From sequence record MN655998.1: a stretch of 64,000 nucleotides of DNA; one strand, 5' to 3'. Made by a program: the position numbers and the translations under genes. This document shows positions 26,552 through 29,315 of the stretch, piece after piece. This stretch comes from Escherichia phage E26. The notes beneath the pieces are model-generated. The model did not search any database and had not been told where the DNA came from. It saw only the letters and a list, made by a program, of their open reading frames with translations. Position 1 is the stretch's first letter. Every line of letters starts with the position of its first letter.

Positions 26552-26737
26552 TCAGAAATATGCAATATAGTTTGCCAGTCCTACAGAGTCATCATTCGGC
26601 ATTGCTTTTACTGCCAGTTCAAACCCTGCTTCAACTTTCTGTTTAGCGGATTCTTCGTTATAACCCCAGATTACCAGAATAGCTACTACGTTTTCTTTGC
26701 TTACTGCTTTCAGTGCTTTAGTGATGCGACGTGCCAT
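26552..26737 (-). CDS. hypothetical small protein
   Basis: ORF with ATG at 26737 behind GGAGAATCAA leader. Confidence 0.4.
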   Translation of the reverse strand: MARRITKALKAVSKENVVAILVIWGYNEESAKQKVEAGFELAVKAMPNDDSVGLANYIAYF

Positions 26738-26783
26738 AATTTGATTCTCCGTTTAAGAAAGTGTGTTTCGTTTCGATGGGTGT

Positions 26784-26812
26784 ATTATGCTATAGGCCGG
26801 ATCTGGTGTCAA
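26784..26812 (-). promoter_or_regulatory. sigma70-type early promoter (TTGACA-N17-CATAAT)
   Basis: -35 at 26807-26812, -10 at 26784-26789; spacer contains GATC. Confidence 0.6.
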
Positions 26813-26837
26813 CAACTTTTTTAAAAAAATTTTAGGC

Positions 26838-26866
26838 AATAAAAAAGCCACTCCGAAGAGTGGCTT
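26838..26866 (-). terminator. rho-independent terminator
   Basis: Hairpin AGCCACTC-TTCG-GAGTGGCT followed by U-run on minus strand. Confidence 0.7.
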
Positions 26867-27015
26867 ATAGGGAAGGTAGCGAATCTTCCTTGTCTCCAAC
26901 CTGCTAGCGGCCTAGCAAGTGAATGCTTTAGCGTACCGGATCGCCCACATACGCTGTAATAAATGCGGCTAGGTGACGTCCAAATCATTCTAACCGCGCT
27001 GTCTTTAGTTCACTG

Positions 27016-27234
27016 TTATTTATATCGCTTTCTCTCGCGACGTTTTTGATCTTCTTCCTTGATAGAGTTAAACGCATCAAAAAGACACATGACACTGATA
27101 ATGAACATAACCGTATTTTCTACGATATCCCACGGCTTCGCATCAGTACAGATCCCCCAAACGGTAAGAAATGCAAATAATGCAGAAGAGATCACAAGCA
27201 TGATACTTGCTAAGATATAAAAAGTCATTTTCAT
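27016..27234 (-). CDS. small hydrophobic membrane protein
   Basis: 72 aa, two hydrophobic helices and basic C-terminus; ATG overlaps upstream stop (ATGA). Confidence 0.4.
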   Translation of the reverse strand: MKMTFYILASIMLVISSALFAFLTVWGICTDAKPWDIVENTVMFIISVMCLFDAFNSIKEEDQKRRERKRYK

Positions 27235-27413
27235 GGTTTTACCTCAATTCTTCGATATTCATCACACATCCACGCAGTAAGCAAGAATCCCAACACATAA
27301 GCAACAAAATACGTTAATGCTTCTTCTGGTTCCGTGCTATGTATCATCAGTAAACCAGCGAGAACAGTCTTAATAATTACATTTAAAATAATTAGCCACG
27401 CAAATAGTTTCAT
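27231..27413 (-). CDS. small hydrophobic membrane protein
   Basis: ATG at 27413 overlapping upstream stop (ATGA). Confidence 0.4.
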   Translation of the reverse strand: MKLFAWLIILNVIIKTVLAGLLMIHSTEPEEALTYFVAYVLGFLLTAWMCDEYRRIEVKP

Positions 27414-27634
27414 CGTATACCCCATTTCGGTCGAGTCTTTTCAAACTTATACATTCCGTAACAATCTAGAATCATCCACGTAACAAGAGCACCAGTCAAC
27501 ACAGACAACACACAGAAGAAGTAAAACGGTCCGGTTGCATTATCAACATGAGCAAGCCATGTAAAGAATACACATGCTAAGAATGTAAAGAACATCATAA
27601 AACACAAGAAAGCAAAATATTTTATGCTACTCAT
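27410..27634 (-). CDS. small hydrophobic membrane protein
   Basis: ATG at 27634 with GGTGG RBS; hydrophobic. Confidence 0.4.
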   Translation of the reverse strand: MSSIKYFAFLCFMMFFTFLACVFFTWLAHVDNATGPFYFFCVLSVLTGALVTWMILDCYGMYKFEKTRPKWGIR

Positions 27635-27741
27635 AGCGCCACCATACAACAAATCATAAGAAACCCAAACGCAATTAGAATTGCATCAAATTTAGTGAAC
27701 TCAGGTCCACCTATCAACATCATTCGTTCTATTTCGTTCAT
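27631..27741 (-). CDS. very small hydrophobic ORF (about 36 aa)
   Basis: ATG at 27741 overlaps upstream stop and its stop overlaps the next ATG; below ORF-track size cutoff. Confidence 0.3.
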   Translation of the reverse strand: MNEIERMMLIGGPEFTKFDAILIAFGFLMICCMVAL

Positions 27742-27935
27742 AGCGTACAAAGCCATTTAAAAGCACCACATAAAGCGAGCAGAATACTAGGTATAAACGA
27801 GACCATAACAAGTTTGCAAAAATCATCTAAGGTAACACCGGAATAGCTACCTACTGTAACAACACCGATCATCAGACACAGAAAGAAAACAAATGCAATC
27901 ATAAACAAAGTATTGCTAAACAGTTTAGTGATCAT
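27738..27935 (-). CDS. small hydrophobic membrane protein
   Basis: Hydrophobic; probable ATG at 27935 with GTGGGG RBS (longer alternative starts at 27977). Confidence 0.35.
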   Translation of the reverse strand: MITKLFSNTLFMIAFVFFLCLMIGVVTVGSYSGVTLDDFCKLVMVSFIPSILLALCGAFKWLCTL

Positions 27936-28128
27936 TAGACACCCCACGACGATCAATTTCAAAAACTTTTTTACCATCAACGAAGCATGTCACAACTGCC
28001 TCGTTGACTTCCGCAAATTGTTGTGTTACCCACTTAAGGTCAGAGCGAAACAATGTTCTATTAATAACAAATGTTTTACCGCTCTTATCCTTACCCATAA
28101 ATTTTGCTTTAACCATATCAAATTCCAT
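27925..28128 (-). CDS. hypothetical small protein
   Basis: ATG at 28128 with AAGGTGA RBS. Confidence 0.45.
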   Translation of the reverse strand: MEFDMVKAKFMGKDKSGKTFVINRTLFRSDLKWVTQQFAEVNEAVVTCFVDGKKVFEIDRRGVSNDH

Positions 28129-28137
28129 ATTATCACC

Positions 28138-28295
28138 TTATTTGCTAATCGCTAAACCCAATCCGAAGAGAGCACCCGACGCTACAGTATACCCGAAAGT
28201 TTCAAATGCAGTAAAGATATCCAACCCACCAGCTAACAGAGTTGCAGTAAACAGAGTACCAGCTACGAACATAAAAGTTTTACCGATAAATTTCA
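28138..28295 (-). CDS. small hydrophobic membrane protein (52 aa)
   Basis: ATG at 28295 behind AAGGAGAATCAAG leader and promoter; below ORF-track cutoff. Confidence 0.45.
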
Positions 28296-28327
28296 TCTTG
28301 ATTCTCCTTTCGTTTGTTTGTGGGGGT

Positions 28328-28356
28328 ATCTTACTACCCCCGTTTCATGTTGTCAA
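28328..28356 (-). promoter_or_regulatory. sigma70-type early promoter, -10 inside a hairpin loop
   Basis: TTGACA (28351-28356) N17 TAAGAT (28328-28333); GGGGGTA/TACCCCC stem. Confidence 0.6.
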
Positions 28357-28363
28357 CTATTTT

Positions 28364-28741
28364 TTAAGAATATTTTACTTCGTCTACAATGTCTTTCATG
28401 ACATTGATTTCCATTCCGGTCAGAACACGTTGGAACATGTGCTGCACATACGCTTTCAGGTATTCATTTGATGGCTTGCTATCGAAAGTCTTTTTAGTGT
28501 AGTAGTCATCACCGAAAGCTACTGTAATTACATTTTCGTCGTCGTTCCAAGCGATATAAGCAAATTTGCCGTTATCCCAGAAGCGAGCACTAATTGCTAC
28601 TTTTGTTGAATCGAATCCTACTTCGCTGTGAGATTCAAGAACTACTTGCGTACCAGTTTCTTTATGAATGTAGTAGCGGGATACTAAGTCAAAGTTACGG
28701 GTGTAGTGACATTCGAATTTATCTTTAAACATCATCATCAT
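28364..28741 (-). CDS. hypothetical protein
   Basis: ATG at 28741 behind AGGAGAATCAAA leader; track start lies further upstream. Confidence 0.5.
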   Translation of the reverse strand: MMMMFKDKFECHYTRNFDLVSRYYIHKETGTQVVLESHSEVGFDSTKVAISARFWDNGKFAYIAWNDDENVITVAFGDDYYTKKTFDSKPSNEYLKAYVQHMFQRVLTGMEINVMKDIVDEVKYS

Positions 28742-28850: not shown

Positions 28851-29315
28851 TTACAGTTTGGTCGTCCACTCCAGGTCTAGATCTTCGACATACTCATGAG
28901 ATCGGACAATCTCTAAATCAAACTCTAGGTCAGTGCCAAATTTACGCGCACCAACATCATAAGAAAGCGTGATATGCGGTACATATTCAGGATAATCCCA
29001 CGTCGCACCTAAAGCAGTGCCGATATCGTGTCTGAATTGCATGTAGTCGCTTTCAAATGCCAGCACAAGCGCATTAGTACCGGATTGAGTTTCAAACACT
29101 TTCAGATGGCATAGAGAGCCTAAGAACTTCTCCCCTTCTTCTGGGATAAACGGAACATAGACACGAGAATATAAGATAGTGCTATGCAGTTTATCACGAG
29201 GAACAGCATTAGGCAGATCGTAAAACTCCTGCAATTTTTCAATGCGGTCTAGTGTATCCTCAGTGAATTTAACCGCAGCATATGTACCTTTAACGGATTC
29301 TCGAAACGGGGTCAT
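28851..29315 (-). CDS. 57B: 2H phosphoesterase, Acb1 (gp57B)-like anti-CBASS cyclic-oligonucleotide phosphodiesterase
   Basis: Two H-x-T/S motifs (LHSTI and PHITLS) of the 2H fold; sits downstream of 57A and gene 1 as T4 57B; ATG at 29315. Confidence 0.65.
   Translation of the reverse strand: MTPFRESVKGTYAAVKFTEDTLDRIEKLQEFYDLPNAVPRDKLHSTILYSRVYVPFIPEEGEKFLGSLCHLKVFETQSGTNALVLAFESDYMQFRHDIGTALGATWDYPEYVPHITLSYDVGARKFGTDLEFDLEIVRSHEYVEDLDLEWTTKL

Follow-up and report, generated by a model that had tools for sequence, protein, structure and literature searches.

What holds together a run of very short, mostly hydrophobic ORFs on one strand of a T4-type phage genome, and what could their products do early in infection? 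The window analysed here, a stretch of 64,000 nucleotides from Escherichia phage E26 (MN655998.1), carries such a run of seven. Its source is a Krischvirus, an RB49-like T4-type coliphage, with 99.6% identity to phage ELT4; the nearest isolates are ELT4 and 011D4. The array lies in a variable region, with acb1 (gene 57B) on one side and the endolysin gene on the other. We consider it probable, at about 0.6, that the array is one PeSL-bounded early Krischvirus operon that encodes Dmd and six putative inner-membrane accessory proteins and whose translation is coupled.

The genes themselves are known. They have been in GenBank as hypothetical proteins since 2003, and the transmembrane segments, early promoter and terminator of the RB49 orthologues were tabulated in the supplements of Nolan et al. 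2006 (PMC1524935). The array was found with identical gene content in 58 of 58 Krischvirus records, and in RB49 (AY343333 / NC_005066), phi1, JSE, GEC-3S and other members of the genus the genes, their order, the overlaps, the promoter and the terminator are all as in the window. These orthologous loci share 93.6-99.6% nucleotide identity with the window and differ from it in nothing substantive. A tblastn search with all six membrane proteins against 50,697 phage records returned sequences of the Krischvirus type alone and found no array outside the genus. In the W115 record, 'putative membrane protein' is the label of four ORFs of the array, and none of the Krischvirus orthologue records gives a function label for the array genes. 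A search of the literature on Krischvirus transcriptomes and superinfection exclusion returned nothing relevant.

The seven ORFs and their junctions

An earlier note on this DNA had counted at least six minus-strand ORFs of 36-74 aa between 27016 and 28295. They are present there, and the full count is seven, running from 28296 to 27016 and named here g1 to g7. All lie on the minus strand. g1 (28296-28138), the orthologue of RB49ORF124c, encodes a Gly/Ala-rich protein of 52 aa that is predicted to form a two-helix membrane hairpin; it has a strong Shine-Dalgarno sequence, AAAGGAGAA, with a duplex energy of -8.7 kcal/mol. g2 (28128-27925) is dmd, which codes for a soluble antitoxin of 67 aa, the discriminator of mRNA degradation. 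It is followed by the orthologues of RB49ORF122c (g3, 27935-27738, 65 aa), RB49ORF121c (g4, 27741-27631, 36 aa), RB49ORF120c (g5, 27634-27410, 74 aa), RB49ORF119c (g6, 27413-27231, 60 aa) and RB49ORF118c (g7, 27234-27016, 72 aa). Two-helix hairpins are predicted for g3, g5, g6 and g7, and a single C-terminal transmembrane helix for g4, whose 36-aa form is matched exactly by its PHROG profile. g5 has a basic C-terminal tail, and that of g7 is highly charged and basic (EEDQKRRERKRYK).

The description of these ORFs as mostly hydrophobic holds for six of them, with maximal 19-residue Kyte-Doolittle means of 1.64-2.92, and fails for g2, which reaches 0.66. Their proposed targeting to the membrane agrees with the hydropathy scan and with the published TMHMM segments of the RB49 orthologues (g1, residues 7-29 and 33-50; g3, 5-27 and 42-64; g5, 7-29 and 33-55; g6, 5-27 and 32-49; g7, 5-27 and 37-59). 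It also agrees with an AlphaFold2 model of g7, a two-helix hairpin with helices at residues 2-29 and 34-71 (pLDDT 80.6). The predicted inner-membrane set thus comprises five two-helix hairpins (g1, g3, g5, g6 and g7) and one single-helix protein (g4). For the coupled hairpins within g3-g7 the predicted topology places both ends in the cytoplasm, with interhelix loops of 3-14 residues. A Foldseek search of viral structures with the g7 model gave no match at E <= 0.001 and returned just non-significant hairpins; judged by this model, the helical-hairpin fold is not discriminating for annotation.

The earlier note also described successive genes as overlapping by ATGA. Of the six junctions, four follow this pattern (g3/g4, g4/g5, g5/g6 and g6/g7) and two do not: a gap of 9 nt lies between g1 and dmd, and g3 shares 11 nt with the end of dmd (ATGATCACTAA). 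Open frames are often joined by ATGA in this genome, with 25 such junctions on the window's minus strand, against 7.4 in shuffled sequences. When all 164 kb of RB49 were scanned without recourse to annotation, the run of four junctions was the single longest chain, followed by two chains of three. Among 13 genomes, in a comparison that reaches down to 87% overall identity, the four junctions are invariant except for GTGA at g4/g5 in loci L010 and L011. The translational coupling put forward in the note is in keeping with this conservation, in which ATGA became GTGA in one lineage with the overlap kept. Overlaps of four bases occur throughout the genomes of these phages, and neither a common function nor a complex need follow from coupling. 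g4 has no usable Shine-Dalgarno sequence (duplex energy just -1.5 kcal/mol), and it is the one gene for which this suggests a dependence on translation of the upstream gene.

ORFs this short, for which databases hold no homologues, could be non-functional, either chance open frames or the remnants of a single larger gene for a multi-pass membrane protein that frameshifts have broken up, and the frame indeed moves by -1 at every junction, as expected from frameshift decay. Selection tells against this. Frames, starts and stops are intact in all 13 genomes, substitutions in the array are in excess at third codon positions, and pN/pS is 0.33 for g1, 0.49 for g3, 0.29 for g4, 0.10 for g5, 0.25 for g6 and 0.17 for g7, with dmd at 0.27 as the comparison value. 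The range of 0.10-0.49 indicates purifying selection and bears out the seven ORFs as genuine genes. The presence of the array in every one of the 58 genomes also speaks against decay. A broken ancestral gene is further opposed by the 307-aa concatenation, which has no Pfam family at E <= 1, and by an exhaustive HMMER search with g5 among 1.84 billion representatives, which gave no longer homologue: it recovered its own cluster only, together with two spurious long repetitive proteins. The non-functional reading is largely refuted by the selection analysis, and we hold it to be extremely improbable.

Transcription boundaries and the setting of dmd

Upstream of g1, the promoter reported in the note at 28328-28356 is indeed present. 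It is of the early sigma-70 type, on the minus strand (28356-28328), with a -35 box TTGACA at 28356-28351, a 17-nt spacer and a -10 box TAAGAT at 28333-28328. It scores 10/12 in a consensus scan, its core is invariant in the 13 genomes, and it was independently annotated in GEC-3S and predicted in RB49 as Pe:60244. The position of the genes behind such a promoter supports the view that they encode early proteins. The -10 box lies within a G+C-rich stem-loop (28343-28320, minus strand; GGGGGTA-GTAAGA-TACCCCC), and a Shine-Dalgarno sequence, GGAG, follows. The cassette has the architecture of a PeSL as described by Arbiol et al. 2010 (PMC2839356): in a hyperplastic region, a sigma-70-like early promoter is combined with a stem-loop, placed between, across or beside its -35 and -10 boxes, and a Shine-Dalgarno sequence and start codon come after it. 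For other PeSLs, reporter assays of promoter and attenuator or terminator activity in vivo have been published.

That this promoter alone feeds the array is plausible. Read-through from an upstream promoter at 28807-28779 is possible, as the intervening stem-loop has no U-tract. A weak published promoter inside dmd, Pe:59849, was considered as a source for g3 and rejected: with a -10 box that runs into the g3 start codon, it would be unable to drive that gene.

At the far end, the operon is closed by an intrinsic terminator (26866-26845, minus strand) with a 9-bp stem, AAGCCACTC / GAGTGGCTT, a TTCG loop and a following TTTTTT. The terminator is invariant in the 13 genomes, is annotated in GEC-3S, G2494 and the Makalu phages, and has a TransTerm score of 100 in RB49, where it lies between ORF118c and ORF117c. 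Beyond it stands the promoter of the next early module (26812-26784, minus strand; TTGACA-17-CATAAT, 11/12 consensus), which is Pe:58699 in RB49, with a score of 43.6, and is also annotated in GEC-3S. Terminator and promoter together form the downstream PeSL boundary.

The array therefore resembles the PeSL-bounded ORFan modules in its sigma-70-like promoter with stem-loop, Shine-Dalgarno sequence and start, in the terminator-plus-promoter at its far end and in its orphan ORFs. It differs from them in two respects. PeSL modules were described as the portion of the genome that varies and is shuffled (PMC2839356; Comeau et al. 2014, PMC4122927), whereas the array is fixed, being present in all 58 Krischvirus genomes; and it also holds one gene of known function, dmd.

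By its sequence, g2 is the Dmd antitoxin, a soluble and not a membrane protein. It matches Pfam PF17587 with 54.5 bits (cut-off 27), residues 4-62 covering profile positions 2-60 of 60, and phrog_2102 with E = 2.2e-30; it aligns end to end with 'Antitoxin Dmd' of PDB entry 5HY3_B (E = 2.5e-12) and is 46% identical (tblastn) to T4 Dmd, a protein characterised by experiment and of solved structure. We take Dmd to be the known antitoxin against the host RNase toxins RnlA and LsoA. In T4 (41 - dmd - 61.4 - sp - 61.2 - 61.1 - 61), as in the window, dmd is first or second in a string of small early genes, and in T4 one early gene of this string, sp, acts at the cell envelope. The two settings otherwise differ. 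In T4 and JS98 dmd lies between genes 41 and 61, an interval that in RB49 holds neither dmd nor sp, and its neighbours there are soluble or, in the case of Sp, periplasmic; none is a membrane hairpin. No sequence similarity was found between g1 or g3-g7 and these neighbours (61.4, sp, 61.2 and 61.1). Because the neighbourhood differs in T4 and JS98, the link between Dmd and membrane genes is genus-specific and may be incidental.

If the array works as one operon, host RNA polymerase would transcribe it immediately after infection into a polycistronic mRNA of about 1.5 kb. Ribosomes would enter at g1, with its strong Shine-Dalgarno sequence, and at dmd, and from g3 to g7 they would be passed on wherever a stop codon overlaps the next start. 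At least for g4, which lacks a Shine-Dalgarno sequence, such a transfer would be obligatory.

Possible roles of the six putative membrane proteins

The six membrane proteins do not form the family that the earlier note saw in them: in all-against-all BLASTP and phmmer comparisons none matched another better than E = 0.1, which was also the best value when the comparison was extended to the region's 13 mini membrane ORFs. They fall into six different PHROGs, all genus-specific and of unknown function, among them phrog_16462 (g1), phrog_17225 (g3) and phrog_15717 (g6). Searches of Pfam, NCBIfam and PADLOC with the six gave sub-threshold noise alone and no match to a defence or anti-defence family. 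When g7 was searched by word index among 5.8 billion proteins, no relatives came up beyond those at 83-93% identity, all of the Krischvirus type. Small two-helix membrane ORFs are common in the variable regions of T4-like phages; in RB43 and Aeh1, for example, novel ORFs of about 50-70 aa, each with one or two helices by TMHMM, stand side by side, and their sequences are unrelated to the array.

One or more of the hairpin proteins might be a functional analogue of Imm, or they might jointly replace Sp, and block the entry of secondary phage DNA at the inner membrane. T4 Imm is likewise early, has 83 aa and two transmembrane segments, and shares with g1, g3, g5, g6 and g7 the small two-helix inner-membrane architecture predicted here, and with g3, g5, g6 and g7 its size as well, with no sequence or profile similarity. 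The array genes are early and conserved across all members of the genus, and RB49 has no annotated Imm or Sp and none detectable genome-wide (best tblastn E with T4 Imm, 8.8), so a functional replacement is conceivable. Against this, neither the six proteins nor their concatenation match PF14373 (Imm_superinfect) at E <= 1, whereas the T4 Imm control scores 58.2 bits. None of the six is similar to Sp, a secreted protein with a signal peptide, or has a soluble periplasmic domain like that of Sp, their interhelix loops being too short for one; the architecture is generic, as the non-significant Foldseek hairpins illustrate; and six proteins exceed the known need of superinfection exclusion. We regard an Imm- or Sp-like function as rather unlikely. 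A single hetero-oligomeric membrane complex of g3-g7, with or without g1, in which the overlaps fix the stoichiometry, appears improbable as well. It would account for the length of the overlap chain and for its maintenance in 13 genomes, including the compensating change from ATGA to GTGA, and g3-g7 are always present together with a predicted topology common to all; yet functionally unrelated genes in this genome are also often joined by four-base overlaps. Distinctly improbable is the wider proposal that such a fixed-stoichiometry complex forms, with Dmd, an early immunity cassette that acts against membrane-acting abortive-infection effectors, replaces Imm and Sp, or both; if true, this would be a phage machine for counter-defence at the membrane of a new kind, peculiar to the genus.

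A part in lysis timing, with g7 and g5 resembling class II holins or antiholins, seems very unlikely. Class II holins cross the membrane with two helices, keep both termini in the cytoplasm and carry a charged C-terminal tail. g7, with its 72 aa, two helices and tail EEDQKRRERKRYK, and g5 fit this architecture, which is itself generic, and the endolysin at the end of the region is of an unusual type, Peptidase_M15_4. Against such a role stand the early promoter and the distance to the endolysin gene, which lies about 3.8 kb downstream of the array, past several terminators and promoters. RB49 moreover encodes the T holin, rI and spanins at other sites already, and the best holin match in Pfam, PF07332 with g5, reaches E = 0.24 and 11.9 bits against a cut-off of 28.4.

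In the early operon of Dmd and accessory proteins that we prefer, the products would form hairpins in the inner membrane, whose basic N-termini and C-terminal tails lie in the cytoplasm and whose periplasmic loops are short and acidic. There they could protect the infected host against membrane-acting abortive-infection effectors, superinfecting phage DNA, or both. An accessory early role in the host inner membrane is the most likely one for the six proteins, with neighbourhood and architecture as its sole grounds, and superinfection exclusion or counter-defence is a plausible function for them. Protection would fit co-transcription with Dmd, the position of the anti-CBASS gene acb1 two genes upstream of the array (Acb1, PF23474, 174 bits) and a genus without homologues of Imm and Sp.

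What the present analysis adds to the tabulated genes is that they form a module which, unlike typical PeSL orphans, is fixed in every examined Krischvirus and which is under purifying selection as strong as that on Dmd, and that they contain the longest overlap chain of the genome, in an apparent counter-defence neighbourhood (Acb1, Dmd) of a genus without Imm or Sp. The fixed module, the chain and this setting make the six genes reasonable and cheap targets for a deletion or expression screen. The use of RB49-like phages in therapy cocktails lends the question some practical relevance.

An untranslated element downstream of the array

Between g7 and the terminator, about 150 nt (27015-26867, minus strand) are untranslated, structured and unusually conserved. 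This element has a G+C content of 50%, against 37% in the array, and 91% invariant columns, against 72-82% in the genes; its mean pairwise difference is 0.026, compared with a pS of 0.065-0.26 in the flanking genes. Four hairpins are predicted, with a minimum free energy of -63.8 kcal/mol (z = -3.4). Substitutions fall in loops or yield G-U pairs, and there is one compensatory pair; pattern scans of viral and metagenome collections brought in only four further loci, not enough for real covariation statistics. A 55-aa ORF within the element was rejected as coding, as indels of 1 and 2 nt break its frame. The element contains no tRNA or tmRNA and matches no Rfam family at the gathering score, the best sub-threshold hits being generic hairpin-plus-terminator matches. 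It has no similarity to T4 rnaC or rnaD, which lie in the syntenic tRNA region, and RB49 holds no second copy of it.

The element starts at a T4-type late promoter consensus, TATAAATA (27024-27017, minus strand), which shares bases with the final codons of g7 at the element's 5' edge and is not among the 17 late promoters listed as predictions for RB49 in the literature. Copies of TATAAATA number 14 in RB49, and 12 of them lie 20-42 nt upstream of known late-expressed genes.

Genomic setting and anatomy of the operon

A megablast search with positions 26700–28700 matched 58 phage records, all of them from RB49-like phages of Escherichia or Shigella in the genus Krischvirus (Straboviridae). Every record covered 100% of the query at 93.6–99.6% identity, the closest being phage ELT4 (99.6%). 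The complete array of seven minus-strand genes, g1 to g7, was found in 58 of 58 Krischvirus records, a number obtained independently by counting those in which the major capsid gene was matched over its full length. In the reference phage RB49 the array is annotated as RB49ORF124c, dmd, RB49ORF122c, 121c, 120c, 119c and 118c, and the gene order is 4, 2, 3, 1, 57A, 57B, ORF125c, the array, ORF117c to ORF103c and endolysin. T4 carries ipI, tRNA genes and rnaC/rnaD at this position instead. Krischvirus has no tRNA genes (our own search; PMC11162368). The array genes are genuine. They had been annotated before, and the literature already covers the membrane character of their products as well as the promoter and terminator.

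An earlier note described at least six consecutive ORFs here that encode mostly hydrophobic peptides. The ORFs are present, but they number seven, six of them strongly hydrophobic: g1 (28296–28138, 52 aa), g3 (27935–27738, 65 aa), g4 (27741–27631, 36 aa), g5 (27634–27410, 74 aa), g6 (27413–27231, 60 aa) and g7 (27234–27016, 72 aa), all on the minus strand. The remaining gene, g2 (28128–27925, minus, 67 aa), encodes Dmd, an established antitoxin against the host toxins RnlA and LsoA, in keeping with the PDB entry name. Its product is non-hydrophobic, matches Pfam PF17587 (Dmd) with 54.5 bits against a cut-off of 27, and can be aligned over its entire length with T4 Dmd, the structure of which is solved (PDB 5HY3_B, E = 2.5e-12).

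The promoter proposed at 28328–28356 was located as TTGACA-17-TAAGAT at 28356–28328. Its core is invariant across the 13 genomes that we compared (this window together with nine phages from GenBank and three metagenomic contigs of 87–91% identity). It is annotated in the relative GEC-3S, and Pe:60244 is its counterpart among the predicted RB49 promoters. The -10 box is covered by a G+C-rich stem-loop, one of the arrangements that define the promoter/stem-loop (PeSL) cassettes of RB49 and phi1 (PMC2839356). PeSL-associated orphans are described as shuffled, whereas the array genes are fixed in the Krischvirus genome. A strong intrinsic terminator at 26866–26845 (RB49 TransTerm score 100) closes the unit, and the next early promoter follows at 26812–26784. 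We assign this anatomy, namely promoter, terminator and seven conserved genes comprising dmd and six of membrane type with conserved overlaps, with high confidence. The Shine-Dalgarno sequence of g1, AAAGGAGAA (28297–28310, minus), includes GGAG, the motif cut by the endoribonuclease RegB in T4 early mRNAs. RB49 encodes regB, and by analogy RegB cleavage could possibly shut off g1 translation early.

Gene junctions and selection

Successive genes had been said to overlap by ATGA. This is true of g3/g4, g4/g5, g5/g6 and g6/g7, but g1 and dmd are separated by a 9-nt gap and the dmd/g3 overlap measures 11 nt. Overlaps of four bases are common throughout the genome: the minus strand of the window has 25 qualifying ATGA junctions, whereas shuffles give 7.4. 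In an annotation-free scan the array's run of four was nevertheless the longest chain in the whole RB49 genome, which elsewhere holds only two chains of three junctions.

Across the 13 genomes all seven frames are intact and the four-base overlaps are kept (4/4); pN/pS is 0.33 for g1, 0.49 for g3, 0.29 for g4, 0.10 for g5, 0.25 for g6 and 0.17 for g7, and 0.27 for dmd. Two metagenomic Krischvirus-like contigs (L010 and L011) have GTGA in place of ATGA at the g4/g5 junction, with a start codon still over the stop; g5 is then overlooked by gene callers. A 1-nt insertion in SSG23 and the Makalu phages (L007–L009) leaves Dmd only 64 aa long and makes a TAATG junction of the 11-nt dmd/g3 overlap. 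The Shine-Dalgarno sequence of g4 is unusable (-1.5 kcal/mol), those of the remaining genes ranging from -4.9 to -8.7 kcal/mol; translation of at least g4 is therefore probably dependent on re-initiation after g3.

The membrane proteins, their neighbourhood and possible roles

Two hydrophobic helices each were found in g1, g3, g5, g6 and g7, and a single C-terminal one in g4. These calls match the TMHMM table published for the RB49 orthologues (Nolan et al. 2006, Additional file 2; PMC1524935). AlphaFold2 models g7 as a hairpin of two helices (mean pLDDT 80.6). The six proteins resemble one another in architecture, with basic N-termini and C-tails and a short acidic loop; under the positive-inside rule they would be hairpins whose two ends both lie on the cytoplasmic side.

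No match to the six proteins was found outside Krischvirus records by tblastn against 50,697 phage genomes, and none above noise in Pfam, NCBIfam or PADLOC. A word-index search of 5.8 billion proteins returned only relatives of g7 at 83–93% identity, on contigs of unchanged gene order. When g5 was searched exhaustively with HMMER against 1.84 billion cluster representatives, only its own cluster came back, apart from two spurious hits to long repetitive proteins. The six fall in separate PHROGs, each without an assigned function. On these searches, the genes are therefore genus-restricted orphans. The suggestion that they form a family did not hold: no pair scored better than E = 0.1 in all-against-all BLASTP and phmmer, either among the six or among the 13 mini membrane ORFs between endolysin and acb1. 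A decayed multi-pass transporter gene was also rejected, since concatenated g3–g7 matches no Pfam family.

The 57B homologue two genes upstream of the array (28851–29315, minus) is the anti-CBASS protein Acb1 (PF23474, 174 bits), labelled "57B" or "RNA ligase" in several records. Together with Dmd, this places at least two counter-defence genes in the neighbourhood. The dmd gene of T4 and JS98 has a different location, between genes 41 and 61, where its neighbours are soluble, plus the periplasmic Sp, and unrelated to g1 and g3–g7; the RB49 41–61 interval has neither dmd nor sp. No homologue of T4 Imm or Sp was detectable in the whole RB49 genome. According to the TMHMM table and our own scan, 13 of the 20 novel RB49 ORFs for which TMHMM predicts helices lie in one stretch of about 5.5 kb (ORF103c–124c), six of them in the operon; RB43 and Aeh1, other T4-like phages, also have runs of small transmembrane ORFs.

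The other seven (40–71 aa, ~25447–23403, minus), orthologues of RB49ORF112c, 111c, 110c, 107c, 106c, 104c and 103c, lie between the array and endolysin. Their ORF111c/110c part (~25300–24900) is variable, unlike the fixed array, in comparisons with contig L024, RB49, W115 and G2494 (identity to L024 0–0.5), and the ORF111c orthologue is 40, 48, 65 or 69 aa long in different Krischvirus annotations. The most conserved small gene of the neighbourhood is the ORF117c orthologue (26552–26737, minus; Pfam DUF7421), identical in amino-acid sequence in 13/13 genomes (pN = 0, pS = 0.065).

We propose that host sigma-70 RNA polymerase would transcribe a polycistronic early mRNA of about 1.5 kb, that ribosomes would load at g1 and at dmd and be relayed through g3–g7, and that the products would insert in the inner membrane as tiny hairpins. 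There they may have an accessory early role, for example in shielding the cell from abortive-infection effectors that act on membranes, in superinfection immunity, or in both. We hold this role with low confidence: it is suggested by the neighbourhood (Dmd, Acb1), the timing and a genus without Imm and Sp, and the searches returned no homology in its favour.

A specific Imm-like exclusion role, which would suit that same absence of Imm, is rather unlikely. Somewhat less likely again is a hetero-oligomer of fixed stoichiometry, a reading compatible with the others. A part in lysis timing as holin-like or antiholin-like proteins is improbable, because the promoter is early, endolysin is distant, and T holin, rI and spanins are present elsewhere. 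That the ORFs are non-functional is contradicted by the selection analysis and is very improbable indeed.

A conserved 3' untranslated element

The 150 nt from the g7 stop codon to the terminator (27015–26867, minus) also stand out. Across the 13 genomes, 91% of columns are invariant, against 72–82% in genes, and the mean pairwise difference is 0.026, while synonymous diversity is 0.15–0.26 for g5 and g7 and 0.065 for ORF117c, which lies downstream. The stretch is richer in G+C than the array (50% and 37%). Its predicted fold has four hairpins besides the terminator (-63.8 kcal/mol, z = -3.4); its few substitutions fall in loops or give G-U, one pair passing from G-C through G-U to A-U, in a sequence diversity too low for real covariation statistics. 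It was found in Krischvirus only, with no Rfam family match and no similarity to T4 rnaC or rnaD. An internal 55-aa ORF was dismissed because indels of 1 and 2 nt disrupt it. The divergent contigs show a mosaic pattern of identity, and the element lies within a 500-nt high-identity block that includes ORF117c, so recent recombination could account for part of the conservation.

A perfect T4-type late promoter motif, TATAAATA, lies at 27024–27017, exactly at the 5' edge of the element. Of the 14 copies of this motif in RB49, 12 sit 20–42 nt upstream of known late-expressed genes; the copy at 27024–27017 is not among the 17 late promoters that have been published as predictions for RB49. We tentatively suggest that the element may be a functional RNA. 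Positions 26867–27024 (minus) would then form either a structured, stabilising 3' end or a separately transcribed late small RNA with a length of about 165 nt. On one assembly contig (L023, MAVA01000028.1, 3330–3960) the array is present with g5 frameshifted, and a 14-nt deletion has taken out both the stop codon of g7 and TATAAATA; this may reflect either a degenerate variant or a mistake in the assembly, and the conserved element downstream is intact.
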